Counted from the stretch's first letter, positions 2,042 through 42,063 are shown. The stretch is 42,672 bases of DNA from Polyangiaceae bacterium (GCA_029261965.1 JAJDAH010000357.1:1-42672); one strand, 5' to 3'. The notes: a model not told the origin generated them from the letters alone. Numbers and translations are program-made.

Positions 2042-3016
2042 TCACAAACAAGCAGGGCACTGCGCGCGAGCGCACGCAACGAGCTGCGCCCCTCCAGGTG
2101 TGAAGGGAGCACCGAGGCACATGTTCAAGCAACCCGCCCCCGAAGCCCCACACGCCATGAAACAATCGTAGCCGGCGCTGCACGCCGGGTTCTGAAGGCA
2201 GAAGTCGAGCTCGAAACAACAGTTCTGCGCCATACAGTTGCTGCAGTCGGTCGGCCCGGACGGGCAAACGATGGGCGGTGGGGGCGGCTGCGGATCACCA
2301 CAGAATCCCCCAGCGCAGATCCCGGAACAGCAAATTCCATCAGAATTGCAGGGCTGGCCGTTGCCCACGCACATCTGCCCCATCGAGCATCGCCCGCCCA
2401 CGCACGCGAGCCCGCCGCAGCAAGGCATCTCGGGACTGCAAACCGAGCCTGGATCCCCGCACTGGCAGAAATTGCGAACGCAGCTGAAGTCGAGGCAGCA
2501 CGGCAGATCGCGAGAGCATGGTTGGCGGTCACGACCACAGAACGGAAACTCGTCGCACGCGCCATCGACACACACGAGGTTGCCGCAACACTGTTCGTCC
2601 CCGCCGCATCCCCCACCGAAGTCCTGACACGACACGCACGCACCGTTCGGGCTGCAGAGCCCGGAGCAACACGGCAGTCCCAAGTCCGTTCCACACATCG
2701 ACCCGAGATCGACGCAGCCGCCCCCCACGCCGCCCGTACCCCCGGTCCCGGTCCCGCCGGAGCCGCCTGTGCTAGTGCCGCCCGTGCCGACGCCCCCGGT
2801 TCCGTTACCACCGGTTCCGTTACCACCGGTGCCGTTGCCACCGGTGCCGGCCCCTCCCGAGCCCCCGCTGCCCATGCCGGTCCCGCCGGTGCTCGCACCC
2901 CCGGCGCCAGCATCGGCCGACCCCCCAGTGCCGGACCCGGGAAAGAAGTCACTGGTACGCCCGCCACAACCGACGAGTAAAACGAGCGCGAAGAGAAGCC
3001 CCAGCCTCACGATCAT
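2042..3016 (-). CDS. Cys-rich lipoprotein with Gly-rich (GTGGN)n linker
   Basis: ATG at 3016. Signal peptide plus lipobox MIVRLGLLFALVLLVGC. The GTGGNGTGGN repeat linker is encoded by 15 bp DNA repeats at ~2790-2850. The C-terminal domain is extremely Cys-rich (>40 Cys). It is followed 16 nt downstream by the paralog at 1333-2025. Confidence 0.65.
   Translation of the reverse strand: MIVRLGLLFALVLLVGCGGRTSDFFPGSGTGGSADAGAGGASTGGTGMGSGGSGGAGTGGNGTGGNGTGGNGTGGVGTGGTSTGGSGGTGTGGTGGVGGGCVDLGSMCGTDLGLPCCSGLCSPNGACVSCQDFGGGCGGDEQCCGNLVCVDGACDEFPFCGRDRQPCSRDLPCCLDFSCVRNFCQCGDPGSVCSPEMPCCGGLACVGGRCSMGQMCVGNGQPCNSDGICCSGICAGGFCGDPQPPPPPIVCPSGPTDCSNCMAQNCCFELDFCLQNPACSAGYDCFMACGASGAGCLNMCLGAPFTPGGAQLVACARAQCPACL
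2790..2850. repeat. 15 bp tandem repeat (about 4 copies) encoding the (GTGGN)n linker
   Basis: ccggttccgttacca / ccggtgccgttgcca repeats. Confidence 0.75.
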
Positions 3017-3091
3017 CGCGGGAGCATAGCAGACGCCTCGGGACCTTCGAGCCACGTGAGGCCTTGGAGTAAATAAGCCGCGTGGTCTCGT

Positions 3092-4063: not shown

Positions 4064-4160
4064 GCGGGAGCGAACCTTTTGCTTCACTTTACCACGCAGT
4101 TCGAGAAATGCGCTTGAATGACCCGACCCGAGGGCGCAACGAATGCGCGAAGGCTCGCGC

Positions 4161-5210
4161 ATGGCGCTGACGAAGGACGACCGTGTTTTTACGGGCGCAT
4201 TGGTGCTCGCCGTGGCTCTGCATGCGGCGGGATTCGCTGCGGCAGTGCTCGCCCCACGAGAACACCGGCTTTGCATGGCTCCGGCAAGGTCGTCCGACGA
4301 CCTCCGCGTGTGGATCGAGTACGAGCCATTCGCCGAGAACATCGACCGCCACACGCCGGAGAGCGACCGTGCGGTCGACGCCCCGGACAAGCACATCGCT
4401 TTCCGGCGCGATGCCCGCTCCGAGCGGCCGAGCCTGGGATCCACCCAGCTTCGCGCGTCGGTCGAGGCCGTCGAGTCTGCCGAGGCCATCGAGTCGGGGC
4501 CTCACGAAGGATCTTCGTCGCCCACGAAACCCGGTTTGACGCTCGAACAGCTCGGCATCGCCGGCCGCAGTCGCGTGGGACTCTGGGGTGCAGACCAGCT
4601 CGGGACGAAGAAAAGGCGACCCGCTGTCGAGGAGTCGATGCGACGAGAGCTCGGGCGTCGTCGAGCCGAGGTCGGTCTCGGCGCTGGCGGTCCAGTCGTC
4701 ACCGCCCTCGAGCTCGCCGCGCGTTCGACGAATACCCCCCACAGCGGAAACGCCACGTTCCTTGCCCGCGTTGGCCCTGCGGGCAAGGTGCTCGGAATCG
4801 ACGTCTTGAGTGTGACCCGCGACTATCAAGCGTGGGCCCGGGCAGCGCGCCATGCCGTGGCCGCTTTGGCCGGCCGCGCGATGAGAGTCCCGGGCGACTC
4901 GAAAGGCGTCGACGTCGTGGTGGAAATCCGGTCGCGAGTTCAACTGCCGAGCGGCGCCGATCCCGGCGTCGCTGTCGACCTCTTCGGGTTGCCGGTCAAG
5001 TTGGGTCGCGGCAAGCACTCCACCAAGGTTTCGATCCTGACGCCCGTGCTTCGGCTCGAACCCATGGATCTCGGCGTGCCGGGCGGGGATTCGAAGCTTC
5101 CCGCCATCGTTTTCGGAATCGAAATGGGAGTGTTCGGGGATCCGGCGGACATCGGCGCGGCTGAACAGCGCGTCGTGAGCGGTCGCGTGCTCAGAGAAGA
5201 ACCGCTCTAG
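4161..5210 (+). CDS. hypothetical membrane-anchored protein (single N-terminal TM, periplasmic C-terminal domain)
   Basis: MALTKDDRVFTGALVLAVALHAAGFAAAVLAP, a TM helix right after the start. Reasonable GC3 codon bias. The competing antisense ORF 4089-5363 is Arg-rich low-complexity. An alternative start lies at 4143. Confidence 0.5.
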   Translation: MALTKDDRVFTGALVLAVALHAAGFAAAVLAPREHRLCMAPARSSDDLRVWIEYEPFAENIDRHTPESDRAVDAPDKHIAFRRDARSERPSLGSTQLRASVEAVESAEAIESGPHEGSSSPTKPGLTLEQLGIAGRSRVGLWGADQLGTKKRRPAVEESMRRELGRRRAEVGLGAGGPVVTALELAARSTNTPHSGNATFLARVGPAGKVLGIDVLSVTRDYQAWARAARHAVAALAGRAMRVPGDSKGVDVVVEIRSRVQLPSGADPGVAVDLFGLPVKLGRGKHSTKVSILTPVLRLEPMDLGVPGGDSKLPAIVFGIEMGVFGDPADIGAAEQRVVSGRVLREEPL

Positions 5211-5255
5211 CAGGCGTGTTAAGAAACACCCTGCTCCAGAAGAACCGTGCCCGCG
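5208..5255 (+). promoter_or_regulatory. conserved post-stop hairpin motif, copy A
   Basis: TAGCAGGcgtgttaaGAAACACCCTGCTCCAGAAgaaCCGTGC. Imperfect inverted repeat AGCAGGcGTG...CACcCTGCT. It starts on the TAG stop of ORF 4161-5210 and shares a 19 nt identical core with copy B. Confidence 0.5.
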
Positions 5256-5379
5256 AGAAACATTCTCGCCTCGGTGGAACCCGCGCTCGCACGGGACCCG
5301 AAAACACGACTGCAGCGCTCCTGCAGTTCTCGGATGCGGCTTTGCTGCCCCTGCCGATTCCACTCGGCGGTATTACGAA

Positions 5380-6429
5380 GTGGTCGTGACGAACACACCC
5401 GAGTGGTTTCAGAAGGCGATCGGGACCAGATTCGACGAACACGTCGTCGAGGTCGACGGCTGCCCCGTTCACTACGTGCGGTGGGGTGACACCGCCAACC
5501 CCGGAATCGTCTTGGTGCACGGTGGCGCTGCGCACGCCCACTGGTGGTCTTTCCTCGCGCCACTCTTGACCGATCGCTTCAGCGTCGTTGCCATCGACAT
5601 GAGTGGCCACGGCGAAAGCGGTCGTCGCGAGGACTACCCTCGCCGAACCTGGGCGAAAGAGGTCATCCGGGTGAGTGAGCACGCGAGCTTCGTCGGGCCG
5701 CCGATTCTCGTGGGTCACAGCCTAGGCGGGCTCGTCGGGATCGTCGCCGCCGCCCTGTACGGAGACCATCTCGCCGGGGCGATCATCGTCGACGCGCCGG
5801 TCAGGAAACCGGACCCGGAAACTCAGGAAGGTCGCCGCGGCGGCGGAATGTTCCGCAACCCGAAAATCTATCCGACGCTCGACGAGGCATTAGAACACTT
5901 TCACCTCGTACCGCCCCAGCCCTGCGAGAACCAGTTCGTGCTCGACCACATCGGCCGACACTCACTGAAAGAAACCAAGGATGGTTTCACCTGGAAGTTC
6001 GACCCGAGGATCTTTTCCCTCGCTCACCCTGAGGCCATGCACGAGCACCTGGCCAATGTGAAGTGCCGAGTCGCGCTCATGCGCGGGCAGAAGAGCATCG
6101 TCGTACCACCGGAAACGGGCGAATACATGTACGAGCTACTCCGCCGCAACGCACCGGTAGTCGAAATTCCCGAGGCGTATCACCACCTGATCCTCGACCA
6201 GCCTCTCGCGTTCATCGCGGCTCTCCGAGCGCTGCTCGCCGACTGGGAGCATTCAGTCCCCCGGACGGCACCCAGTCCCCCGGACGGCACTGCGTCCTCG
6301 GACGGCACTGCGTCCTCGGACGGACCGCGCTCCCCCGACCGACCGCGCTCCCCCGACCGACCGCACTCCTCGGACCCCGAGCCCGGCGACCCGCGCCTCG
6401 TGAAAGCGTCTCAGGTAGCGACGCAGTAG
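5380..6429 (+). CDS. alpha/beta-hydrolase fold protein
   Basis: HGGAAHAHWW oxyanion region and a GHSLGG nucleophile elbow. The C-terminal ~55 aa is a low-complexity repeat tail (PPDGTASSDGTASSDGPRSPDRPRSPDRP) encoded by tandem 18 bp repeats. Confidence 0.75.
   Translation: MVVTNTPEWFQKAIGTRFDEHVVEVDGCPVHYVRWGDTANPGIVLVHGGAAHAHWWSFLAPLLTDRFSVVAIDMSGHGESGRREDYPRRTWAKEVIRVSEHASFVGPPILVGHSLGGLVGIVAAALYGDHLAGAIIVDAPVRKPDPETQEGRRGGGMFRNPKIYPTLDEALEHFHLVPPQPCENQFVLDHIGRHSLKETKDGFTWKFDPRIFSLAHPEAMHEHLANVKCRVALMRGQKSIVVPPETGEYMYELLRRNAPVVEIPEAYHHLILDQPLAFIAALRALLADWEHSVPRTAPSPPDGTASSDGTASSDGPRSPDRPRSPDRPHSSDPEPGDPRLVKASQVATQ
6268..6380. repeat. two short tandem repeats (18 bp x2.3 and 18 bp x2.7) at the 3' end of the hydrolase gene
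   Basis: ggacggcactgcgtcctc x2 and ccgaccgcgctcccccga x2.7. Confidence 0.7.
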
Positions 6430-7685
6430 AGTCGATACACGTGCACGTCGCGGTTGAGGTAACCGCCAGTGATGCCGGCGAGAAAAATCTGCCAGGCGCG
6501 AAAAGTCGCCTTGCCGAGATTTTTTGTCATGAGCTCTTCACTCGCCATCATGCGCTCGTACCAAGCCGTCGTCGTCTTGGCGTAGTGGAACGTCAGGTTG
6601 ACCAGTTTGTCGACTTGGAAGCCGTTCTTCTCCAGCGCGCGAACGTGCTCGCCGACGGTGAACCAGTGAAAACCCGGCCAGACGTACTTCTTGTTGAAAC
6701 TGATGCCGACGCTGAATTCGATCGGGAGCGGCTTGTACACGGTCATCAGCGCGTGGTGGAGATAGCGACCGCCGGGTTTGATTCGTTTCCGAACGTTCTT
6801 CACGTAGGGAACCAGACCGCGCGGCCCGACGTGGCTGACCATCCCTGTCGACGTGATGTGATCGTAGACTCGTTTGTCCAGGCGGTAGTCGCCCTCGTTG
6901 AGCTCCCACTTCTTTTTGTCGTGGTCCTCCAGCAGGCGGCGACCCTCGGTCGCTTGGTTGCGTGAATGCGTCCACCCCACGACCTTGCCGAGGTCGTAGT
7001 TTTCGAGCGCCACCTCGAGCTGGCCGCCGTAACCGCAACCGACATCGAGCATCGTCTCGCCGGGCTTGGGATTGATGTAGTCGACCGCATCCTTGAACTT
7101 TCGCCATTGAGCTTTTTCGAGCGAATCCCAGTCGTCTTCTCGACCCTTGCCGACACGCAATAGCGACTCGATGTCGAGGTTGTCCGGATCCTCGAACATG
7201 CCGCACGAATAGGACATGTAGCGCCGGTCCAGGTATTCGTTGAGCGCTTCTTGAGGAATGTCGTAGTGACTCTTGACGCTGACGCTCGCGCGACTCGTGT
7301 CCTGAAACGCCGTGAAATCGAGCAACCGGCCAGCGAAGTGCCAGGGCATCATCTTGAAGCGACCGTGCTTGCGTATCGACGGGAGCGCGTAGAGGTTGCC
7401 CGTGAAATCGACTTCGCCTTCGAGGAAGCGCTCGAGGAAGCGCATGCCGTCGAGACGAAGCAAGTCGCGCCCCGCGGCTTCGGTGCGGATGTTCACGTAG
7501 AGTGGTTTTCCACTGAAATGCGGTTCCCGTCCGCCCACCGAGTAGGTGTCACCGCGCCAGTCGGTGATGACGACCTGCCAGGGGAAAACACCAAAACCGT
7601 ACTCGGCGAAGCTCTTGAGCTCATCGGCGAGCGACGAGCCGGTGCCCTGGAACGCTTGGCTGATTCGGCTTCGGATTGATTCCAT
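6411..7685 (-). CDS. cyclopropane-fatty-acyl-phospholipid synthase family SAM-dependent methyltransferase
   Basis: LDVGCGYGG SAM-binding motif and a CFA-synthase-like C-terminal region (GGRYLHH). ATG at 7685 is preceded by GGAGGGAG. It is convergent with the hydrolase gene, overlapping by 19 bp. Confidence 0.75.
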   Translation of the reverse strand: MESIRSRISQAFQGTGSSLADELKSFAEYGFGVFPWQVVITDWRGDTYSVGGREPHFSGKPLYVNIRTEAAGRDLLRLDGMRFLERFLEGEVDFTGNLYALPSIRKHGRFKMMPWHFAGRLLDFTAFQDTSRASVSVKSHYDIPQEALNEYLDRRYMSYSCGMFEDPDNLDIESLLRVGKGREDDWDSLEKAQWRKFKDAVDYINPKPGETMLDVGCGYGGQLEVALENYDLGKVVGWTHSRNQATEGRRLLEDHDKKKWELNEGDYRLDKRVYDHITSTGMVSHVGPRGLVPYVKNVRKRIKPGGRYLHHALMTVYKPLPIEFSVGISFNKKYVWPGFHWFTVGEHVRALEKNGFQVDKLVNLTFHYAKTTTAWYERMMASEELMTKNLGKATFRAWQIFLAGITGGYLNRDVHVYRLYCVAT

Positions 7686-7842
7686 CGGTGCTCCCTCCGG
7701 TCGGGGATGGACGCAGTACCTCGCCCAAACGGCGGGCGAAAGTGGCCTTACACACCGGGGCTCCGCAAGGCACCTCACGCGGCGCGTTAACACTTCTTCA
7801 CCGAGCCCCCCGACCGGGCTTCACACACGGGCCACAAGTTCA

Positions 7843-7867
7843 GGGGGCGGCGGGTTCTGCCGCCCCC
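7843..7867 (+). promoter_or_regulatory. GC hairpin in the 5' leader of the cpxP-like gene
   Basis: GGGGGCGGC-gggttct-GCCGCCCCC, a perfect 9 bp stem. It ends 4 nt before the AAGGAG SD and is followed by no T-run. Confidence 0.4.
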
Positions 7868-7881
7868 GAAAAGGAGAAAAG

Positions 7882-8337
7882 ATGCTGGGATTTTTGTTCG
7901 GTTCCGCGTGTTTAGTCGGGCTTTTTGTGGTGCTCCGGCGAGGCCACTGGGGCCGCGGCGGCTTTGGAGGCGGGCGGAGGTTCTTCCTCCGGCGCGTATT
8001 CGAACGGCTCGACACCACGCCGGGCCAGGAGAAGGTGATTCGCGACGCCGTGGACGAATTCGTCGACAGCGCCGGCGCCCTCAAGAGCGAAGCCAAGCGG
8101 TCGCGCGAAGACGTCGCCAATGCCATGCGCGGCGCATCGATCGACGAGACAGTCTTTGGGGAGCTGTTCTCACGCCAGGACGACGGAATTCAGATCGTCC
8201 GCAAGGAGCTGTTCGGAATGCTCGCCCGAGTGCATGACGCGCTGGACGAGAAACAACGTCGGCTACTCGCCGACATGATCGAGTCGGGGCCGTCATGGTC
8301 CTGGCGCCGCCACGGCCCATCGAATCGGTGGGCCTGA
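7882..8337 (+). CDS. CpxP/Spy/ZraP-like periplasmic stress protein (LTxxQ-type motifs)
   Basis: ATG at 7882 lies 6 nt after AAGGAG. It has an N-terminal hydrophobic signal/anchor, a Gly-rich segment, and two LTxxQ-like motifs (LDTTPGQ, LDEKQ). It sits directly upstream of an OmpR-family two-component pair. The upstream 112 codons of the long ORF are antisense to the CFA synthase and were discarded. Confidence 0.55.
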   Translation: MLGFLFGSACLVGLFVVLRRGHWGRGGFGGGRRFFLRRVFERLDTTPGQEKVIRDAVDEFVDSAGALKSEAKRSREDVANAMRGASIDETVFGELFSRQDDGIQIVRKELFGMLARVHDALDEKQRRLLADMIESGPSWSWRRHGPSNRWA

Positions 8338-8370
8338 ATAACCTCGTCGAACCAGAAGGGAGAACCCATC

Positions 8371-8559
8371 GTGAAACGAAAAGCACTGATCGCCTTGCTC
8401 GCTGCGGGAGCCATCGGCGGCTTCGCCGCGGGCTGCGCCAAGATGTCCCACCACCGCCACCATCATCACCGCGCCGCCTTCGAGAGTCGCATCGCGGACG
8501 TCTGCGTGAGCGCCGCTCACCGAGTCATGTCGCGTTCATCGAGCAGCGAGATCCGATAG
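8371..8559 (+). CDS. small His-rich lipoprotein (62 aa)
   Basis: A GTG start lies 9 nt after AAGGGAG. Textbook lipoprotein signal MKRKALIALLAAGAIGGFAAGC. The mature part contains HHRHHHHR, a possible metal-binding stretch. It sits between the cpxP-like gene and the response regulator. Confidence 0.5.
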   Translation: MKRKALIALLAAGAIGGFAAGCAKMSHHRHHHHRAAFESRIADVCVSAAHRVMSRSSSSEIR

Positions 8560-8600
8560 CAGGGTCTTGAAACACCCTGCTCCAGAAAAAATCCGTGCTG
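8557..8600 (+). promoter_or_regulatory. conserved post-stop hairpin motif, copy B
   Basis: TAGCAGGGTcttGAAACACCCTGCTCCAGAAaaaatCCGTGC. Perfect 8 bp inverted repeat AGCAGGGT/ACCCTGCT. It starts on the TAG stop of the His-rich lipoprotein ORF and ends 21 nt before the response-regulator ATG. Confidence 0.5.
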
Positions 8601-8620
8601 CTAGACTGCCCGCGGCGCGA

Positions 8621-9301
8621 ATGGCGATACGACTTCTCATCATCGACGACGACGAGCGTCTCTTCGAGTTGCTCGACTCGTATCTGTCGGAAAATGGTGT
8701 CGTCGCCACTCGTGCCGCGGACGGTAGACAGGGCTTCACGGCGCTCGAGCGAGACTCCTACGACGCAGTCTTGCTCGACATCATGATGCCGGGCATCGAT
8801 GGTCTCGAAGTACTCCGTCGCATTCGCGAGTCGAGCTCGATCCCGGTACTCATGCTCACCGCCAAGGGCGACGAAACCGACCGCGTGGTGGGCCTCGAGC
8901 TCGGCGCCGACGACTACGTCGCCAAGCCGTTCAGCCCGCGCGAGCTCCTCGCTCGCGTCAAAGCCGTGCTCCGAAGAGCCCAGCCCGACGCGGAAAAGGA
9001 ACGCCTTGCAGCCGGCGGACTCGTGGTGGAGGTCCCAACCCGGGAAGTTCGAGTCGATGGTGACCGCATCGACCTCACGGGCCTCGAGTTCGACCTGTTG
9101 GTCGCCCTGATGAGGCGAGCGGGTCGAGTCGTGCCGCGCGCTCGGCTCTTGTCCGAAGCAGGGCGCGACGAAGTGGTCAGCGAGAGAACCGTCGACGTTC
9201 ACATCTCCCATCTGCGGAGAAAGATTGGCGACGACCGGCGCGGCGCGCGACTCATCCAAACGGTGCGCGGCGTCGGTTACGTGCTCGCCCGGGACGCATG
9301 A
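8621..9301 (+). CDS. OmpR/PhoB-family response regulator
   Basis: A receiver domain (LLIIDDD...LLDIMMPGIDG...LMLTAKG) plus a winged-helix C-terminal domain. The ATG at 8621 was preferred over the upstream in-frame start. Confidence 0.85.
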   Translation: MAIRLLIIDDDERLFELLDSYLSENGVVATRAADGRQGFTALERDSYDAVLLDIMMPGIDGLEVLRRIRESSSIPVLMLTAKGDETDRVVGLELGADDYVAKPFSPRELLARVKAVLRRAQPDAEKERLAAGGLVVEVPTREVRVDGDRIDLTGLEFDLLVALMRRAGRVVPRARLLSEAGRDEVVSERTVDVHISHLRRKIGDDRRGARLIQTVRGVGYVLARDA

Positions 9302-10560
9302 GGCACCCAGGGCGCTGGGTCCGAGCGCGGCTCCATCGGCGGCTTTTTTTTTGGTTCGGCGCGGCGATAATCCTGACAGGAATCGTCACGGGGATCGTCG
9401 GAAGCATCGTCACTGCTGGCTCGGTATCGGATGTCGAGCGACTGCGCGCGTTCGCCAGCGACCAATTCGCCGAGGTCTGGGACGACCTCCCCAAACGCGA
9501 AGCGCTCGTCGAGAGGGTCCACCACGGATTCGAGGTGCGCGTCATCCTCGAGTCCCGAGCAGGAGAGGTGCTCGAACGCCGGGGAGAGAGTTGCCACAGC
9601 AAGGAGTACACGGTCGACATCGAGCGAGACGGCGTCGCGCTCGGAACATTGAAAATTTGCCGTGAACGCGAAACCGGTCGGCGCGGGGGATTTTTGGTCG
9701 TTCTATTCGCCGCCGGCGGCACCCTCTGGTTCATCGCCGCCGTGGTCGCGCACCGCGTCGTGCGGCCGCTTCGCGATCTGGTCCGGGTAACGAACGAAAT
9801 CGGCGCCGGAAAGCTGTCGAGCCGAGTGCGCCTCGGTCGCCACCACTCCGGCGAAGTGGGCGAGCTCGCCGAATCGGTCAACCTGATGGCAGAGCGCATC
9901 GAACGCCAGATCGAAGACCAACGCGAGTTGCTTGCCGGCGTGTCGCACGAGATCCGAACCCCGCTCACTCGTCTTCGGGTGCTCGTCGAGCTCGCGAGGG
10001 AACGCGGCGCGGAGGAAAAGACCCTCGACGGCCTCGAACGCGAGGTGCGCGAGCTCGACGACCTCGTTGGGCAACTCTTGGCGAGCTCCCGGCTCGAGTT
10101 CTCCGCCATGAACAAACGCGAGCTCCGCGCCAAGGACGTCGCTTCGCGGGCAATCGACCGGGCCGGGCTCGACCCCAGCGTCTTTTTCGACGACGCGCCG
10201 GACGCGAACATCGTCGGCGACGCGACGCTTCTGGGCCGAGCTCTCGCCAACCTGCTGGACAACGCGAGCCGGCACGGCGGCCGCGTGGTCGCCATGCGGC
10301 TACGCCGAGAGGAGGGCCAAGTCGTATTCGAGGTGGCCGACGATGGCGACGGCTTCCCCCCGGAATTTCTGCCGCGCGCGTTCGAAGCGTTCACCCGGAG
10401 CCCGACGCGGCCAGACGACCCGCGCGGCGGCTCCTCGCTGGGGCTGGGGCTCGCCCTGGTCAAGCGCATCGTCGCAGCGCACGGTGGCGTCCCGCACGCA
10501 GCGAACCGAACCGAAAAAGGCGCGCGCGTCGGCTTCCGATTACCCGAAAAACATGCATGA
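9298..10560 (+). CDS. sensor histidine kinase (2 TM, HAMP, HisKA, HATPase_c)
   Basis: An ATGA overlap with the regulator stop suggests translational coupling. SHEIRTPL H-box. N, G1 and G2 boxes (DNASRHGG, DDGDGFP, GLGLALV). Confidence 0.85.
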   Translation: MRHPGRWVRARLHRRLFFWFGAAIILTGIVTGIVGSIVTAGSVSDVERLRAFASDQFAEVWDDLPKREALVERVHHGFEVRVILESRAGEVLERRGESCHSKEYTVDIERDGVALGTLKICRERETGRRGGFLVVLFAAGGTLWFIAAVVAHRVVRPLRDLVRVTNEIGAGKLSSRVRLGRHHSGEVGELAESVNLMAERIERQIEDQRELLAGVSHEIRTPLTRLRVLVELARERGAEEKTLDGLEREVRELDDLVGQLLASSRLEFSAMNKRELRAKDVASRAIDRAGLDPSVFFDDAPDANIVGDATLLGRALANLLDNASRHGGRVVAMRLRREEGQVVFEVADDGDGFPPEFLPRAFEAFTRSPTRPDDPRGGSSLGLGLALVKRIVAAHGGVPHAANRTEKGARVGFRLPEKHA

Positions 10561-19278: not shown

Positions 19279-20256
19279 GTGCACGCGCGGGCGCTCTGTC
19301 TGGCAGTGATGCTGAGCTCGACGGCCGCGCTCGCACAACCGAAAGACCCGGTCACCGCCGAGGCCCTCTTCAAAGCGGGCCGCAGCGCCGCCGACCTCGG
19401 TGAGCATGCCGAAGCCTGTGAAAAATTTCAGGAGAGCCATCGACTCGATCCAGCGCTGGGCACTCTGCTCAACATCGGCATTTGTGAGGAAGGCCTCGGT
19501 AATCTCGCCGGCGCATGGCAGCACTACCAAGAAGTGATCCACGGACTCGATGCCCGAGACGGCCGCCTACCGGTCGCCCAAGCCCGAGCCGCGGCCCTCG
19601 ATCCGCGCCTTCCGCGACTCGTCATTCGCCGCGCGCCGAACGCGCCCGAGGCCATGCGTGTTCGGCGTGAAGGGATCGAGCTCACGGAGGCCAGCTTCGA
19701 CGTGGCGCTGCCCATCAACCCAGGGCGCCATTCGCTCGTCGTCACGGCCACCGGCTACGACGAGCAGCGCTTCTGGGTGCAACTCGACGAGGGCCAAACG
19801 CGGGAACTCGTGGTTCACACAGGTCCGAAGACCGCCCCACCCCGCTCACCCCCGCCCGCCACCAAGGAGCAACGCGCAGCGTTGGTCCCGCGAGCGCGAC
19901 CTGTGATGCGACCGCCTATGCCACCAGACGAGTCTTCGGTTGCGCGGCCAACCGGTTTCGCGATCCTGGGCGTGGGCGCGGCGTCTCTCGGGGTCGGTGC
20001 CGTGGCGGGCGCGCTGGTGCTCGACCGAAAAAACACCGTCGACGCCGAGTGTGAGGTCGAGCTATGCACGAGCCGCGGACTCCGAGCAGCAGACGACGGC
20101 AGGCGATTCACGCGGCTCAGCACCGCTACGTTCGCCATTGGGATCGCCGGGGTCGGCGCTGGCCTGTACCTGGTTCTGAAAAGACCGCGCCGTACAGCGA
20201 TCACGGCAACCGTCAGCCCCGAACGTTCGAGCATCTGGCTCGTGCAACCGTTCTGA
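19279..20256 (+). CDS. secreted hypothetical protein (signal peptide, C-terminal TM)
   Basis: A GTG start. Signal ARALCLAVMLSSTAALAQP. A C-terminal hydrophobic stretch FAILGVGAASLGVGAVAGALVL. Confidence 0.5.
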   Translation: MHARALCLAVMLSSTAALAQPKDPVTAEALFKAGRSAADLGEHAEACEKFQESHRLDPALGTLLNIGICEEGLGNLAGAWQHYQEVIHGLDARDGRLPVAQARAAALDPRLPRLVIRRAPNAPEAMRVRREGIELTEASFDVALPINPGRHSLVVTATGYDEQRFWVQLDEGQTRELVVHTGPKTAPPRSPPPATKEQRAALVPRARPVMRPPMPPDESSVARPTGFAILGVGAASLGVGAVAGALVLDRKNTVDAECEVELCTSRGLRAADDGRRFTRLSTATFAIGIAGVGAGLYLVLKRPRRTAITATVSPERSSIWLVQPF

Positions 20257-24469: not shown

Positions 24470-24682
24470 GACGGACCTCCCGCGTCGGGAGGAAAAAAAC
24501 TCGCAGGTTCGACGACTCGTGCAGGGTGGATCTTGGGTCCGGGAATGGAATGCAGCTCCGGGCCGTTTAGTAGGTTGGAGGAAGCTGGAGGTCTCGATCC
24601 CCAAACGGCGTGAGCCGCTCGCATCGGCTAGCAACCGAGCTCGCTCCCGTGAGCGATTCAGCTTCCGGAGAGAAGCAGGCAG

Positions 24683-24769
24683 AGGAAGGTGACGGAGTCG
24701 AACCGCTGCCACGACTGTGACCACTGGTTTTCGAGACCAGCCTGAGCACCAGCGCTCAGCTCACCTTCC
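24683..24769 (-). tRNA. tRNA-Ser (anticodon CGA), class II with long variable arm
   Basis: The reverse-complement folds as acceptor GGAAGGT/ACCTTCC 7/7, anticodon stem CTGGT/ACCAG with loop CTCGAAA, a long variable arm, and T-loop TTCGACT. The D-arm is atypically long and the discriminator is not G, so the call is tentative. Confidence 0.6.
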
Positions 24770-24855
24770 GAAAGAAGTTGCCCTCGCCTCGTTTTTTTCG
24801 AGTCGTGACGCCCGGGCCAGGCGGCGGAGTTTTTCGTCCTCCGATTCGACGGGGC

Positions 24856-25389
24856 TCAGACGATGCCTGCCGACGCTTGCGGTCGACAGAAGTCACGCCA
24901 CTCGTTCGGAACGCGGTTGACGTCCATGAACGGCGGCGTGAGCGGCAGCGTCTTCGGCTGAAACGGCGCTCGAGCGAGCCGCATGCTCGCCTCGGCCGGC
25001 GTACGGTTCGCCTTCTTCGAGTTGCAGCCGTAGCACGAGGTCACGATGTTCTCCCACGTCGTCCGGCCACCCCGAGCCCGCGGGGTGACGTGGTCGTACG
25101 TGAGCTTGCGCGCCGGAAGCTGCGTGTTGCAGTAGCAGCACGTGAAGCGGTCACGGGTGTAGACGTTGATCCGCGAAAACTTCACGCCCCGCTTGGTGCG
25201 ACTCAACTTCTTCTTGAGGCGCATCACTGCCGGCATCTTGATCGTCGTGGACGGCGAGCTGATCTCTTCGGCGTACTCGACGACGACGTCGGCCTTGCCG
25301 AGGAAATGCAGCGTCACCGCGTCCTGCCAGGACACGATCTTGTGCGGGAAGTACCAATGCGTGAGCAGCAGCGTTTGTTGCGGATTCAT
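24856..25389 (-). CDS. HNH endonuclease
   Basis: CCYCN...YDHVTPRARGG...NIVTSCYGCNSKK, the HNH/zinc-hook signature. ATG at 25389 preceded by GGAGG. Confidence 0.8.
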   Translation of the reverse strand: MNPQQTLLLTHWYFPHKIVSWQDAVTLHFLGKADVVVEYAEEISSPSTTIKMPAVMRLKKKLSRTKRGVKFSRINVYTRDRFTCCYCNTQLPARKLTYDHVTPRARGGRTTWENIVTSCYGCNSKKANRTPAEASMRLARAPFQPKTLPLTPPFMDVNRVPNEWRDFCRPQASAGIV

Positions 25390-25543
25390 GACTCCTACCT
25401 CCGTTTTCGTTTCATTTTCTCTTCACGTCTCCGAAAGAAGCTCCCGAAGGAGCGACAGAAAAAGTCGAGCTCGGGGGCGCGGACTCACCCGCGGCGAGGA
25501 GCCCGCAAGACCCCCGAGCTCTGTGTGTTCGCACCTCGGTCAC

Positions 25544-26656
25544 TCAGACGTGACCGTTGTTGCCGCGCGGACCGAGCAAGTCGGCCGGCAGCAACGACTT
25601 GAGGCCGTCGGCGCCGACGACGATCCGGACTTCTCCGATTTGCGAAGCAATGTCCTTCATCGCGTCGAGCTCCTTGAGCCGAAGCAGGACCGGCTGGTCC
25701 GCCATGACCCGCGCCGTGTTGGCCAGCGACCGCGTCGCCGCCGTCTCCTCGCGACGGAGAATGACGTTGGCTGCGGCCTCCTTCTCGGCCTCGATGACGC
25801 GATTGAGCAGCGTCTTCATCTCGCCGGGCAACACGACGTCCTTGACGCCGACCCGTTCGACGCGAACGCCGAACTTGGCTGCCTTGCCGATGACCTGCTG
25901 CTCGAGCGCGTTGGTCATCGCGTCGCGACCTTCGAGAAGCTCGTCGAGGGTCGCGGCCGAGACGTAGTCCCGAGCCGCGAGCTGCACGACCGTGTAGATC
26001 GTGTCTCGCAGGTTCGTGACCGCGTGGGCGGCGAGCGCCGGGTCTTCGATCGCGTACTCGACCGTCAGCGACAGGCGAAGCGTGACCTTGTCACGCGTCA
26101 TCAAGTCCTGACCGACGATGGCGAGCTGGTCGCTACGCATGTCGATGACGCCCACGTGGACTTCCTTTTCCGGGTGCGTCCAGAACGTGTGCCGACCCGG
26201 CTCGAGCAAACGCTCGAGGCGACCCTGCACGTACAGAAGGCCACGCTGGTACGCGAGGACCGTCGCTTCGACGATCTCACGCGCCGGCACGACGAGCTTG
26301 AGCTCGTCCGTGAGCTCCGGCAGCGGCTCGTCGACGTCGAAGACGTCGAGCTTCACCGACGGGTCGACCGTCCAGAAACGGTGCGTGCCCGGCCGGAGGA
26401 ACTTGCGCGGCTTGCCGTCGGCGTAGAGCACCGCACGCTGACGCTTGCCGAGGGTGATCTCCTGGAACCACTCGGCCGGCAGCGCGGCGCGCACCTCGGG
26501 CAGCGCGTCGAAGAGCAGCTGGTCCGTCTTGAACCGCTGCTCGGTCAGGCGCAGTCCCCAAAGAACGTGGCGACCCGGACCGCATGCACGGATCGGGAGG
26601 CCGTTCTTGAAGATGACCGCGCGTTCGTTCAACTTGACGCGAATCGTCTTGTACAT
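25544..26656 (-). CDS. SPFH/band-7 (stomatin/prohibitin-like) domain protein
   Basis: ATG at 26656 lies 8 nt after GGAGG. MYKTIRVKLNERAVIFKNG N-terminus, then an SPFH core (LTVEYAIEDP...VKDVVLPGEMK...) and a coiled-coil tail. The 120-codon upstream extension is Pro/Ser/Arg-rich junk. Confidence 0.75.
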   Translation of the reverse strand: MYKTIRVKLNERAVIFKNGLPIRACGPGRHVLWGLRLTEQRFKTDQLLFDALPEVRAALPAEWFQEITLGKRQRAVLYADGKPRKFLRPGTHRFWTVDPSVKLDVFDVDEPLPELTDELKLVVPAREIVEATVLAYQRGLLYVQGRLERLLEPGRHTFWTHPEKEVHVGVIDMRSDQLAIVGQDLMTRDKVTLRLSLTVEYAIEDPALAAHAVTNLRDTIYTVVQLAARDYVSAATLDELLEGRDAMTNALEQQVIGKAAKFGVRVERVGVKDVVLPGEMKTLLNRVIEAEKEAAANVILRREETAATRSLANTARVMADQPVLLRLKELDAMKDIASQIGEVRIVVGADGLKSLLPADLLGPRGNNGHV

Positions 26657-27094
26657 TTTCGATGCCTCCACGTGAGGTTTGGGGTGAGGTGCCGGGTGCT
26701 CACCATCGAGCACGTCGGCGTGGCTCCGCATTGGCGGAGCCGAAGTAGGGGGATCGGGGCACGGCCGCAGTTGCGATGAGTTGCGAGGGGGGAGGAGCGG
26801 CCATGCCCCGTCCGAAGTAGTGGTCCAGAGAGCCGCGGAGACCCCAAACGCTCGAGGGTCGCTCGTGTTGCCGGCTGCAGACGTGCGGCAGCCGGTTCGA
26901 CGTGGCGACGCTCGAACGCTCGCGGACCCTCGGAGGCGCGGAATGGGCGGACCGCTGTTCGGGAGCGATGGTGGTCGCCGCAACGATGACCACCGCCCGT
27001 GAAAAGCGGCGCGCATGACCCCGGGCCTACCGTGGGCTCGTCGCCTACGAGTGCTTCCGAGGAAGCACCCGCGGCAACGCTGGGGCTCGGACTC

Positions 27095-27170
27095 TTTGGA
27101 CCGATAGGAAGACGTTGTTGTTACGTCGTGGGAGTTGCAGTCCCATTTTCCAACTGAGCTACATCCGTTT
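27095..27170 (-). pseudogene. degenerate tRNA-like unit with Cys (GCA) anticodon arm
   Basis: A canonical 5' part GGATGTAGCTCAGTTGG, then anticodon arm TGGGA-CTGCAAC-TCCCA. There is no D-stem 3' strand, a non-canonical T-arm (GACGT-AACAACA-ACGTC), and no acceptor pairing. Confidence 0.3.
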
Positions 27171-27171
27171 C

Positions 27172-27256
27172 ATGGATGACGGGAGTCGAACCCGCGACCG
27201 TCAGATTCCAAGTCTGATGCTCTTACCGAGGGGGTGGTCCCGACTTACGAGGTCGG
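27172..27256 (-). pseudogene. degenerate tRNA-like unit with Pro (UGG) anticodon arm
   Basis: Good anticodon arm TCAGA-CTTGGAA-TCTGA and T-arm GCGGG-TTCGACT-CCCGT. The 3' acceptor strand CATCCAT has no 5' partner upstream. Instead it is complementary (6/7) to the 5' end (ACGGATG) of the next unit downstream. Confidence 0.3.
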
Positions 27257-38322: not shown

Positions 38323-40035
38323 CTAAAATTTCGCGTGAATGCTCGAAGTACCTCCACCGGCGACGTTCACCGAACGCACTTTGCGGCCCGAAGGTCCCGC
38401 GAATACGATGGTGTGGGCGCCGGCGCTGACGCGCACCGACTTCGGCGTCATGCCGAGAGGACGGCCGTCGACGATGATGTTTGCCGGAGGATCCGCGCTG
38501 ATGTTGATGATGCCCTTGCCCGCCTTCTGCGGCTTTTGGGCAATCGCCGGTGAGCCACCGCTGGACGCGGCGAGCTTCTTCATGAGCGCCGAAGCCGGCG
38601 CCGGAGGTGCGCTCGCACGAGTCGCTGCCGTCAGCTTCGAGCCGTAGCTCTCTCCTGCGGACTCGTCGTCCGCTTCTTGGGGCGCAGCCGCGAACAGGTC
38701 GTCCGCGCTCGCGATCCCATCGCCTTCCTTTTTGGCCTTGGCTGTCTTCTCGTCGAGCGTCAGCTCGAGGTTGAGAACCGCGTCGGAGCTACCGGTCACC
38801 GAAATCGCGCGATCCGCCATGGGCTGAAAACCCTTGGCTTCGGCTTTCACGAAGTGGGTGCCTGGCTCGACGTTTTCTACGCGGCACGGCGAGGTGTCAC
38901 ACTTCTTGGTTCCGTCGACGTAAATCTCGACACCGCTGACCGTGGCATTGCCCGGTCCTGCGACGGTGACGACGAGCGAGCCGTCGCCGGACGCCGCCGC
39001 GCTCTTCGCGCCCACGACACCAATCACGCCAAGCGCTCCAATGACGACCGCGGCAGCGATCGCGAACGGCGCGACGCGCGAGGTCCAGCTACTCGACGCC
39101 GGTGGCGGCAGAGTCGCCGCCATCGGCGCGATGCTGGTGCGGTGGTAGCCGACGGGAGTTTCGACGGGCGAGGGAATCGACGGAGGCGGGGGCAAAGGTG
39201 CTACCGCATGCGCATTCGCCGAAGCCGGGGGCAGCGACGTCGTCGACACCCGCGAAGGCACCGGCGTCATCGAACGCACCGGTCGGGTCGACGGCAGCGG
39301 TGGAAGATGCGCGGCTGCCGTCGGCATCGAAGCGATTGCAGACGCCGGTGGCGCCGCGACAGGCGGGGCGGCAGCGACGGGCACACGGGGCGCCGGGGGC
39401 AGCGGCGACGGCAACGCACGCGTCGGCGTCTCTTCCGCGTCCGCAACGGGCTCCGGAGGTACCGGCCGCTCGAGCGACTGCGGGAACGCGGCAAGATTGC
39501 CACCGAACACGACGGTGGGTTCTTCCTCGTCGTCGTCGATGTCGTCGAGTGGCTCGGCTATGTCCTCGATGGGAGCCGAAGCCAAGGCGGGTGGCGCCAC
39601 GGAGCTCGGCGCAGGCGGCGGCGTGGCCGGACGCATGCTGGGTGGCGGCGGCGCCGAAGCACGCGCGGTCGCGACCGGCGCGGGCACCATGCTGGGCGGC
39701 GGAGCGGAAGCGCTCGTCACGGCAGCCGCGGTCAGCTGTGCGACCGAGGACGCCGATACCGAAGAGCGCGCGCTCGGCGGCGCCGGAATCGGACTCTTCG
39801 TGGACGAGCCTCCACCCACGAGGCTCGCTAGCGCGTTCGAATCGAGCGAACGGCCAGTGGGTGGTGGTGGTACCGACGAACCGGCGCGAGGCGCCTTCTT
39901 CGTCAGAGAGGCAAAAACATCGAGATCACCGCTCGACGCCTCACGCTCCGTGTCCGGGGCGACTTCGGCTGTCTCGGGCGCGTCCCAATCGAGCTCCGCT
40001 TCATCAACATCAGCTTCCAGATCCTCTTTAGTCAT
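38323..40035 (-). CDS. PEGA-domain membrane protein with acidic N-terminus and long Pro/Ala-rich linker
   Basis: ATG at 40035 lies 6 nt after GAGGAG. TM helix VAPFAIAAAVVIGALGVIGVVGA. Two PEGA-like domains (VSGVEIYVDGTKKCDTSPC...PGTHFVKAEAKGF and ADPPANIIVDGRPLGMTPKSVRVSAGAHTIVF). Confidence 0.7.
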   Translation of the reverse strand: MTKEDLEADVDEAELDWDAPETAEVAPDTEREASSGDLDVFASLTKKAPRAGSSVPPPPTGRSLDSNALASLVGGGSSTKSPIPAPPSARSSVSASSVAQLTAAAVTSASAPPPSMVPAPVATARASAPPPPSMRPATPPPAPSSVAPPALASAPIEDIAEPLDDIDDDEEEPTVVFGGNLAAFPQSLERPVPPEPVADAEETPTRALPSPLPPAPRVPVAAAPPVAAPPASAIASMPTAAAHLPPLPSTRPVRSMTPVPSRVSTTSLPPASANAHAVAPLPPPPSIPSPVETPVGYHRTSIAPMAATLPPPASSSWTSRVAPFAIAAAVVIGALGVIGVVGAKSAAASGDGSLVVTVAGPGNATVSGVEIYVDGTKKCDTSPCRVENVEPGTHFVKAEAKGFQPMADRAISVTGSSDAVLNLELTLDEKTAKAKKEGDGIASADDLFAAAPQEADDESAGESYGSKLTAATRASAPPAPASALMKKLAASSGGSPAIAQKPQKAGKGIINISADPPANIIVDGRPLGMTPKSVRVSAGAHTIVFAGPSGRKVRSVNVAGGGTSSIHAKF

Positions 40036-40296
40036 GACCAGCTCCTCAACTAGCGATTGACACCTACGACACTCATGTTCGGGGACAGTCGGCCCGTGAG
40101 CCAGCCGAAAGTACCTGAAAACGTTGGGGATTCCGTTATTGGAGAAGAATTCCAACGTCCATGCACCGATCGGTGCAGTCCCGGTGGATCCTGCCCGCCA
40201 GGGCGGACTCGACGTGTGTCGTCGACGCGCGCCAGAGTGATGAAGCCTGCAGTTTAGTGCGTGTTTGGTAGAGCCGGTGTGCAGTCGCGCCGCCGA

Positions 40297-42063
40297 TCAG
40301 CGGTAAGGCCCCCCGCGCCCTCGAAGCTCCATGCCGAGACCGATCAAGCGGTCGAGCCACGGCAGAGCGACTGCGGGATCTTTCATCGGTGCGGGCAAGA
40401 CAATCTCGAGCGAATGCGATTCGATCCGCAAGCCGAGTGTCTCCGCCCGAATGTCGGCAACGATTGCCGCAGCTCTCGGTGAAAACGGCGAGGCAGAGCC
40501 GACCTCGTTTCCAGCATCGCGGCTGACGTGTCGTCGATACTTCTTGGCGATCGCCTTCGGCACCCAAACCGTTACGTGGGTCGCCTCGGGACGCGCATCG
40601 GCATCCCACCAGATCGTTGCGACGCTCACTTGAAAGCCATCGAGCTCACCGGTGACGACCATGCGCGCCGTCTCGAGCTCGCCATGCAGGTGCCCCGCGA
40701 GCGCACGCCAAGCTTTCTCGAATGGCTGTAGCATGGCGGGTGGCGGTATTCGCGCCCGACCTTGCTCGACGCGCTGGGCGATTTGGATCACCGACCACGC
40801 GAACGCCGCTAGCCGCTTTGGATCCTGGCCAGAACCCCGCCGCACGATCCGGATGTTCTCGTCGTCCATGTCCGCGAGAGTGAAAAGAAGACCGCGTCGG
40901 TGCATGGGCGCGATGAACGCCTTCACTTGCGCGAGCTCTCTGCCCGTCGCGTAGTGGTTTTTACCGATGGGGAACTCGCGCCTCCCCTCGACGTATCGGC
41001 GAAATCCACGACGTGGGCCGCCGTCCAGACCAAGATGCAACGACGGGAACGCGAGCTCGCCGACGAGGTGGGCCGTGCGACGTCGGTACTCCTTGCGAAT
41101 CTCGAGCCGCACACGACCAACTTCGCCCACGAGCACACCGCTTTCGAGTGTGAGGTCGAGCTGGTCGGCCACCGAATCCCAAACCGCGTCGACTCTACGC
41201 GAGCCGACTGCCGGGGGCGCTTGCCCCTCGCCGTGGCTCTTCGAGCCGTCGGGCAACACGACTATGGGGCACGCTCCGACGATGTCCGAAGCCAACAGAC
41301 CTCGCCGGAGCTTCACTTCGAGCTTCCAATCCAGCGACCAGAGCCGCGAGCTCGTTGGGACCGTTGCCGGCAGGTTCGTCGGGGCGCGCATGCGAAACGG
41401 AACGCTCCCGCCACCCGCCAGACCCTCGGCTCCAAGAGTGAGCGCGTATCGAAATGCCTCCGTGGGCTGCGAGTGACGCGATTGTTGCGTCCCCACCAAC
41501 GAAACGACGATGGCCTCGAAGTCGATGCCGGCGGCGTCTCCCACGGCGATTTCGCCGCGCACGGTCTTGTCGGGGCGTATGTGGGTATCCGCTAGGCTCC
41601 ACTCGACGTACGGCCCCACCCGGCTCGGCGACGCGGTGGTGAAGACACCCGGCGTCGAACGAACGTCCACCGGTGCGGGCGCCGCTAGAAGCGTAAAGTG
41701 GCTCCGTCGGTCAGGCCACCACGGAACCTGCACGTGCACGAGCACTCCGTATTCGGTCGTCGCGCCCGCGCCCGAGTAAGTCGCTGGAGCACTTGCCGGG
41801 AGCGAGAAGCGACACTGAAACTGCTGGCGACCGCGCTCGAGGCGCCGCGCCTTGGAGAGGGTCGCCCCCTGCCGCAAGGCCACCCGCTTCCAGCTCCGCT
41901 TGCCGACCCTCAGCTCGTCGACCACCTTCAAGCTCACCTGCAAGCGATCGATCGCGACCGCACGCTTGGCGTCGAGCACGATCGTGGCGACGAAGCTCGC
42001 TCCGGGATGGACGACTTTTGGCGCGAGCAGTTGCACGCTCGGACGTGTCTTGATGATCGCCAC
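40297..42063 (-). CDS. hypothetical protein (588 aa)
   Basis: A long ORF with balanced composition and high GC3. No family was recognised. Confidence 0.5.
   Translation of the reverse strand: MAIIKTRPSVQLLAPKVVHPGASFVATIVLDAKRAVAIDRLQVSLKVVDELRVGKRSWKRVALRQGATLSKARRLERGRQQFQCRFSLPASAPATYSGAGATTEYGVLVHVQVPWWPDRRSHFTLLAAPAPVDVRSTPGVFTTASPSRVGPYVEWSLADTHIRPDKTVRGEIAVGDAAGIDFEAIVVSLVGTQQSRHSQPTEAFRYALTLGAEGLAGGGSVPFRMRAPTNLPATVPTSSRLWSLDWKLEVKLRRGLLASDIVGACPIVVLPDGSKSHGEGQAPPAVGSRRVDAVWDSVADQLDLTLESGVLVGEVGRVRLEIRKEYRRRTAHLVGELAFPSLHLGLDGGPRRGFRRYVEGRREFPIGKNHYATGRELAQVKAFIAPMHRRGLLFTLADMDDENIRIVRRGSGQDPKRLAAFAWSVIQIAQRVEQGRARIPPPAMLQPFEKAWRALAGHLHGELETARMVVTGELDGFQVSVATIWWDADARPEATHVTVWVPKAIAKKYRRHVSRDAGNEVGSASPFSPRAAAIVADIRAETLGLRIESHSLEIVLPAPMKDPAVALPWLDRLIGLGMELRGRGGPYR

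Follow-up and report, generated by a model that had tools for sequence, protein, structure and literature searches.

The window analysed in the current study is a complete 42,672-bp contig from a Polyangiaceae bacterium, with a G+C content of approximately 65 %, and all copy counts given below refer to this contig. Its gene content (FHA/sigma-54 activator, Ser/Thr kinase, DUF2378 and PEGA) points to a myxobacterial chromosome. Within it, a unit of 42–43 nt is present in two copies, both on the + strand, each of which begins with the TAG stop codon of the gene upstream (Table 1). Copy 1 lies at the end of a gene for a membrane-anchored protein of 355 aa and is followed by an alpha/beta hydrolase gene. 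Copy 2 lies in the middle of a four-gene module encoding, in order, a CpxP/Spy-like periplasmic protein, a small His-rich lipoprotein, an OmpR-family response regulator and a histidine kinase; the closest named homologues of the kinase are from Polyangiaceae, Archangium and Stigmatella.

The two copies share an identical 19-mer core, GAAACACCCTGCTCCAGAA (5223–5241 and 8569–8587, both on the + strand), with TAGCAGG on its 5' side and CCGTGC on its 3' side. TAGCAGG has only two occurrences in the entire contig on either strand, at 5208 and 8557. It is separated from the core by 8 nt in copy 1 and by 5 nt in copy 2, and the core is separated from CCGTGC by 3 and 5 nt, respectively. Beyond 5208–5250 and 8557–8598 the similarity between the copies ends abruptly, so that the repeated object is a sharply bounded unit, which can be written as TAGCAGG-N(2-12)-ACACCCTGCTCCAGAA. 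No further match to the 19-mer was present in the contig at ≤3 mismatches, nor at ≤5 mismatches, and none of 100 shuffles of the contig gave a match. Tandem in-frame repeats and tRNA genes aside, the 19-mer is the joint longest dispersed exact repeat in the contig. The shuffle scan and this ranking exclude a chance origin of the repeat.

Neither nhmmer searches with a profile of the two copies nor mismatch scans, in the contig and in related loci L029–L031, revealed extra copies. The only other hairpins of the AGCAGG…CCTGCT type that were found are tRNA T-arms and a hairpin at the orthologous position in locus L041, described below. Exact matches to the 19-mer were obtained in GTDB representative genomes (10) and JGI metagenome contigs (18), with none in IMG/VR; all 28 of these outside matches lack AGCAGG or CCGTGC flanks and are thus unrelated, chance-level occurrences. 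A blastn search of plasmid and phage collections with the unit gave no match, and Rfam covariance models matched neither site, at the gathering threshold or at E ≤ 10.

Each copy is made up of a TAG head, a stem-loop of 8–11 bp and an A-rich tail of 15–17 nt that ends in CCGTGC. The RNA stem of copy 1, AGCAGG(c)GUGUU/AACACCCUGCU (as DNA, AGCAGG(c)GTGTT/AACACCCTGCT), has 11 bp and one bulge, and its minimum free energy is −17.2 kcal/mol in a 61-nt context (z = −2.6 against shuffles). That of copy 2, AGCAGGGU/ACCCUGCU, has 8 bp, with a centroid energy of −13.1 kcal/mol (z = −1.0 against shuffles). The loops are of 4 and 8 nt, respectively. In both copies two bases (A5209 and G5210; A8558 and G8559) are part of the stop codon and of the stem at the same time. 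The sole differences between the 5' arms are the inserted (bulged) C of copy 1 and two additional pairs; a MAFFT alignment of the two copies is inconsistent with the hairpin structure. Both hairpins are real, yet not outstanding for such G+C-rich DNA.

The stem is followed by CCAGAAGAA-CCGTGC in copy 1 and by CCAGAAAAAAT-CCGTGC in copy 2. A position directly after genes would suit a canonical intrinsic (Rho-independent) terminator used twice, and a true terminator is present at the orthologous spot in one of the related loci, L032. In an intrinsic terminator, however, a U-tract lies within 0–2 nt of the hairpin, whereas the sequence that follows the stem here, CCAGAA(G/A)AA, is A-rich. There is no T-run 3' of the stem at either copy; it is on the opposite strand that a T-run precedes the hairpin. 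A terminator scan called neither copy, and a canonical terminator with a T-run does exist elsewhere on the contig, after the gene at 38323–40155. We consider it highly improbable that the unit is a terminator of this type.

The genes that end within the two copies are real. For the 355-aa protein, the database holds an identical protein of identical length together with six homologues, and its orthologue in locus L035 ends at the same aligned column, with TGA as the stop codon. The small His-rich lipoprotein is conserved in four related loci, and all four orthologues use TGA. In the contig, TAG is the stop codon at 7 of the 29 gene ends examined. Since TGA ends the orthologues of the two upstream genes and TAG the contig genes themselves, the TAG appears to have come with the unit. 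The distance from the unit to the upstream stop is 0 in both copies; the downstream starts lie at 129 nt (the first possible start of the hydrolase gene) and at 21 nt (the regulator ATG, counted from T8599). A sequence-only reading of this DNA had described a near-identical motif placed twice, starting each time on a TAG stop codon, with a stem whose 5' arm takes in that codon and with no T-run to make it a classic terminator. The shared core and flanks, the homologue and orthologue support for the upstream genes, the folding of both copies and the A-rich tract bear this description out. Stop-codon readthrough directed by a signal like the pyrrolysine insertion sequence (PYLIS) was also considered and rejected: no tRNA with a CUA anticodon is present among the 30 tRNAs, and the in-frame extensions beyond the two stops, of 3 and 14 codons, have nothing in common.

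Table 1. Features associated with the two copies of the repeat unit
Feature	Position	Strand	Details
Gene upstream of copy 1	4143–5210	+	355-aa membrane-anchored protein, no Pfam family; TAG at 5208–5210 forms the first three bases of the unit
Repeat unit, copy 1	5208–5250	+	43 nt, TAGCAGGCGTGTTAAGAAACACCCTGCTCCAGAAGAACCGTGC; borders placed where similarity to copy 2 is lost
Copy 1 hairpin	5209–5235	+	Outer stem AGCAGG/CCTGCT, bulged C5215, inner stem GTGTT/AACAC, loop AAGA
Gene downstream of copy 1	5380–6429	+	Alpha/beta hydrolase; 5380 is the first possible start
Probable operator/promoter of the module	7787–7826	+	TTAACacttcTTCAC (7787–7801) and CTTCACAC (7819–7826)
CpxP/Spy-like periplasmic protein (Metal_resist)	7882–8337	+	First gene of the conserved four-gene module
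Small His-rich lipoprotein gene	8371–8559	+	62 aa; TAG at 8557–8559 forms the first three bases of the unit
Repeat unit, copy 2	8557–8598	+	42 nt, TAGCAGGGTCTTGAAACACCCTGCTCCAGAAAAAATCCGTGC
Copy 2 hairpin	8558–8581	+	Stem AGCAGGGT/ACCCTGCT, loop CTTGAAAC
Putative extended −10 element	8599–8607	+	TGCTAGACT, for the regulator/kinase genes; directly 3' of copy 2, outside the unit
OmpR-family response regulator	8621–9301	+	From the Pfam scan; ATG at 8621
Histidine kinase	9298–10560	+	Directly follows the response regulator gene

Related loci L029–L035 and L041 were used for comparison, and approximately 90 kb was searched for the unit. The closest relative is L041, in which the CpxP-like protein is 80 % identical and the gene order (hydrolase, CMAS, CpxP-like, small protein, regulator) is the same as in the contig; its own contig begins approximately 25 nt downstream of the position equivalent to copy 1. 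The module order of CpxP-like protein, small lipoprotein, regulator and kinase is kept in L031, L032, L033 and L041, and also in L034, though no small gene was called there. Because the closest relative has the same gene order and copy 2 lies within a module conserved in Myxococcota, the idea that the two direct copies bound a mobile cassette of 3.35 kb was rejected.

The lipoprotein–regulator spacer was compared across five relatives, and neither the unit nor its 19-mer was found in any of them (0/5). Other structures occupy this spacer: a classical terminator with a T-run in L032 (z = −5.1), a GC-rich hairpin of 10–11 bp with no T-run in L031 and a 10-bp hairpin, AGCAGGCCGu…gCGGCCTGCT (arms AGCAGGCCG…CGGCCTGCT; z = −3.2), in L041. 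The outer six pairs of the L041 hairpin, AGCAGG/CCTGCT, are shared with the contig stem, while the inner pairs are different, and the hairpin abuts the same TGCTAGACT. At the other site, a hairpin follows the stop codon of the 355-aa protein orthologue in L035 but is no better than shuffles (z = −0.01).

These comparisons bear on another history, in which the hairpin is native to the spacer between the lipoprotein and regulator genes and a single event of gene conversion or repair placed a copy of some 43 nt where the 355-aa protein gene ends. There would then be no family, and the hairpin would have no more than an ordinary gene-end function. The same outer stem in L041 makes the copy 2 site look ancestral, and only two copies are present in 42.7 kb, with none in the other sequence searched. 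However, the loop and tail that make up the 19-mer are not found in L041, which means that the complete unit is not ancestral at that site, and a coincidence would be needed for the TAG to replace the stop codon of the second gene exactly, with the length of the protein unchanged. A one-off ectopic copy is thus possible, but on the unlikely side.

The gap of 21 nt between copy 2 and the regulator start is explained by a conserved extended −10 element that fills it. The sequence concerned, TGCTAGACT, has a single occurrence in the contig, and TGnTAnnnT is found 12–20 nt before the regulator ATG in all but one of six loci, the exception having TAGAGT. On this evidence the regulator/kinase pair is predicted to be transcribed from a promoter of its own, with a very short leader, and the unit to lie 5' of that promoter, where the transcript before it ends. 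A second conserved element is situated upstream of the CpxP-like gene, where CTTAACRCTTCTTMAC is followed by CTTCACA. It contains the direct repeat TTAAC-N5-TTMAC, with a 10-bp period, which is conserved in six loci (the contig, L041 at 2437–2476, L031, L032, L033 and L034); TTMAC-N5-TTMAC has one match in the contig (7787–7801) against 0.08 expected. The CpxR-type operator is GTAAA-N5-GTAAA. From its conservation and this likeness, the box is a much better candidate than the unit for the binding site of the regulator. Box and CTTCACA together probably form the operator/promoter of the module, which resembles Cpx systems for envelope or metal stress and includes an OmpR-type regulator and a HAMP kinase.

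Among the candidates named from the sequence was a shared operator, taken here as one for the adjacent regulator. A DNA-level site of this kind, whether an operator (possibly for the OmpR-type regulator) or an element of an alternative-sigma promoter, would bring the hydrolase and regulator/kinase genes under common control. Both copies are upstream of + strand genes, the stem is palindromic, and, counted from the start of transcription that the extended −10 (8602–8607) implies, the 19-mer spans approximately −45 to −27. In addition, GAAAC in the core resembles the −35 element of extracytoplasmic function (ECF) promoters and is followed by CGT. The internal geometry does not fit, however. The half-sites AGCAGG and CCTGCT are 15 nt apart in copy 1 and 12 nt apart in copy 2, and the distance from GAAAC to CGT is 18 and 20 nt, respectively; a hairpin would accommodate such differences between the internal spacers, whereas a rigid site for DNA binding would not. 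The downstream starts are also at dissimilar distances, and there is no −10-like element at the equivalent distance after copy 1. A 10–11 bp direct repeat as in OmpR/CpxR-type operators is lacking in the unit, whose sequence is conserved in no relative, unlike the −10 and the box; the sequence that does look like a CpxR operator is the separate box at 7787–7801.

A promoter scan called neither copy. Promoters of the sigma-70 and ECF types have fixed spacing and position, whereas the block spacings in the unit differ by 2–3 nt, and readings of the unit as a sigma-70, ECF or sigma-54 promoter were rejected on hexamer content, variable spacing and the scan result. The distance of 21 nt to the regulator start, given in the sequence-only reading, is correct and is accounted for by the conserved extended −10. 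A shared operator of the adjacent regulator is unsupported. A function of the unit as a DNA-level site is improbable.

The perfect identity of the 19-mer reaches beyond the stem into the tail, which suggests sequence-specific recognition. The hairpin with its single-stranded A-rich tail (AGAAGAA/AGAAAAAA) could be a post-transcriptional regulon signal that couples two envelope-related transcripts, either as a place where an RNA-binding protein or small RNA docks, or as the marker of a small RNA derived from the 3' untranslated region (UTR). A small-RNA target was also among the candidates of the sequence-only reading. Both upstream genes encode envelope proteins, and copy 2 belongs to the 3' part of a cpxP-like transcript; in enterobacteria, the CpxQ small RNA derives from the cpxP 3' UTR. 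Against this, no Rfam family was matched even at the relaxed E value given above, no complementary target of the 19-mer is present in the contig at ≤5 mismatches, and the element is not kept in relatives with the same operon. The identity of the two copies may also simply mean a recent common origin. Little probability can be given to such a signal, about as much as to the DNA-level site.

Among known classes of mobile or repeated element, miniature inverted-repeat transposable elements (MITEs) are characterized by terminal inverted repeats and target-site duplication; the flanks of the unit (ccgctc…ccgcga at copy 1 and gatccga…tgctag at copy 2) have no direct duplication. Bacteria with GC-rich genomes also have intercistronic or 3' stabiliser hairpins and terminator-like hairpins that lack a U-tract, all of which are normally unique in sequence. 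The unit is like these in being a gene-end hairpin with no U-tract, and copy 2 sits between a probably strongly induced CpxP-like/lipoprotein pair and a regulator/kinase pair that is predicted to be separately promoted. It differs from them in that a sequence of 42–43 nt has been reused at a second gene.

The closest likeness is with repetitive extragenic palindromic (REP) sequences. In this class the stem is of 5–13 bp and the loop of 2–20 nt, ranges that include both copies (11 bp plus a bulge, and 8 bp; loops of 4 and 8 nt), and the elements are extragenic, between unidirectional or convergent ORFs (open reading frames) and near the 3' end of the upstream one, as both copies are. The GTAG superfamily of REPs (Di Nocera et al., 2013; PMC3733652) is particularly similar, above all the uni-REPs, which are short stem-loops with 8–11 bp stems like those of the unit. 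Uni-REPs are extragenic and lie between co-directional genes, hugging the 3' end of the upstream ORF at a variable distance from the downstream ORF (PMC3733652), and the same arrangement is seen here. Two further features of GTAG REPs are shared with the unit, in that the flanking ORF takes the terminal TAG as its stop codon and the sequence is lineage-specific. A likeness is also apparent to those E. coli REPs that place a hairpin ≤15 nt from the stop (Liang, Rudd & Deutscher, 2015, cited in PMC12306157). The organism, sequence and copy number are different. In the unit the hairpin begins inside the stop codon, so that a terminating ribosome would have to unwind it.

The abrupt borders, the hairpin, the placement of the unit in sense orientation directly on the upstream stop but at variable distance from the downstream gene, the TAG supplied where orthologues use TGA and the lineage-specific sequence lead us to favour, with about an even chance of being right, a lineage-specific REP-like dispersed palindromic element that works as an RNA hairpin where the upstream gene ends. 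The claim is limited to the unit working like a REP-like gene-end hairpin and does not extend to its being a GTAG REP. We infer that the unit functions at the RNA level, that it has spread by being copied or by moving, and that the genome contains further copies. Two of the proposals made in the sequence-only reading, a REP-like intergenic repeat and a stop-codon-context structure, are those that fit best.

A number of observations weigh against a REP-like element. The GTAG of GTAG REPs is unpaired and its first and last G are conserved, whereas the unit is headed by CTAG (5207–5210) or ATAG (8556–8559) and the AG of this head pairs with the 3' CT of the stem. The conserved tail of 15–17 nt is longer than is usual for REPs. 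Genomes with GTAG REPs contain tens to thousands of copies, compared with the two seen on this single contig of 42.7 kb, and a family is not demonstrable from two copies; the unit is absent from the approximately 90 kb of related loci, and the 19-mer with its flanks from the GTDB representatives, JGI metagenomes, IMG/VR, plasmids and phages. REPs as a class are associated with a gene for a REP-associated tyrosine transposase (RAYT; an IS200/IS605-like Y1 transposase) that is flanked by the repeated units. Neither a RAYT nor any other transposase is present among the 30 ORFs of the contig that were scanned against Pfam. Head-to-head dimers of the unit, such as REP doublets forming hairpins (REPINs) or bacterial interspersed mosaic elements (BIMEs), were not seen in the contig. 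As to structure, the copy 2 hairpin is not more stable than shuffled sequence (z = −1.0), and there is no covariation or compensatory change between the copies. Across the contig, the 45 nt from the stop codon onwards fold no better at gene ends than in coding controls (P = 0.78), so that gene-end hairpins are unsupported as a general feature of the contig.

The TAG of the unit serves as the stop codon of the upstream gene, and, if the unit is a REP-like gene-end hairpin, it would be transcribed as the extreme 3' end of that mRNA. The hairpin would most likely act there as RNA, in one or more ways. It could be a barrier to 3'-to-5' exonucleases; according to PMC12306157 (citing Khemici & Carpousis, 2004), REP hairpins block exonucleases. 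Alternatively, it may be a weak transcript-end or attenuation signal, independent of a U-tract, that parts the upstream cistron from the next transcription unit. Copy 2 in particular could insulate the CpxP-like/lipoprotein pair from the regulator/kinase pair with its predicted extended −10, and would do so in a slot where relatives have a terminator or another hairpin. A cost to translation is also conceivable. REPs ≤15 nt from the stop codon stall ribosomes in E. coli (Liang et al., 2015, cited in PMC12306157). By analogy with what is reported there for stop-proximal REPs, every terminating ribosome would have to melt the stem, and the output of the upstream gene could be lowered.

A further reading is that the unit represents a family of mobile hairpins, so far undescribed, that is found in uncultured Polyangia, headed by TAG and not tagged with GTAG, with a conserved single-stranded tail, and inserting exactly at stop codons, such that the native TGA is replaced by TAG. 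This is a long shot. Were it true, a family that inserts at stops would put a conflict between ribosome and hairpin, or a common docking site for a protein or small RNA, at the 3' ends of selected envelope genes. Two copies on one contig are a modest finding as it stands. Should the unit prove to be a multi-copy family, REP-like elements that supply stop codons would be extended to Polyangia, and such a family would give a handle on how these hairpins tune the expression of the gene that they terminate. No myxobacterium is mentioned in the REP survey PMC3733652.

The analysis has also yielded annotation of a conserved envelope-stress module in Myxococcota, in the form of its likely operator and a predicted internal extended −10. 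The conserved −10-like elements TGCTAGACT (regulator) and TATTAC (hydrolase) are situated only 3–13 nt before the respective start codons. The latter, at 5371–5376, is common to L041. Elements so near to the starts would suggest very short-leader or leaderless mRNAs in this lineage.

The spacer of 169 nt that follows copy 1 contains two more hairpins. That at 5253–5269 is GCGAGAA-aca-TTCTCGC. In the other, at 5309–5327 (CTGCAG-cgctc-CTGCAG), the hairpin is followed on the − strand by a T-rich tract and gives a terminator-like call, yet no − strand gene ends there. Further downstream, the part of the hydrolase gene that encodes the C-terminal tail (6254–6350) contains in-frame tandem repeats of 18 nt, encoding DGTASS and PRSPDR repeats.

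Other repeats are present elsewhere on the contig. An in-frame tandem repeat of 18 nt at 1757–1846 consists of five copies of GCGGTGCCTCCGGTCGCG, and a gene on the − strand (2042–3055) encodes a Cys-rich protein, resembling secreted lipoproteins, that contains GGTG/GNGTG repeats and matches no Pfam family. Two unrelated genes on opposite coding strands share an exact 18-mer in direct orientation, CGAGTGTGAGGTCGAGCT (20046–20063 and 41145–41162), probably by chance.

An array of 30 tRNA genes covering most amino acids is located on the − strand at 24576–30441, with 28 of the genes within 27376–30441; 19 of the 30 reach the Rfam tRNA gathering score. The array adjoins genes for an HNH endonuclease (24856–25389) and an SPFH/Band-7 protein (25544–27016). 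Such a dense array seems unusual for a myxobacterial chromosome, and it may be a mobile tRNA array. One of its members, at 24682–24769 on the − strand, was called by ARAGORN as tRNA-Ser (anticodon CGA) and scored 54.1 bits with the Rfam tRNA-Sec model, for which the gathering threshold is 47 bits; the CGA anticodon argues that this gene encodes a tRNA-Ser with a long variable arm.

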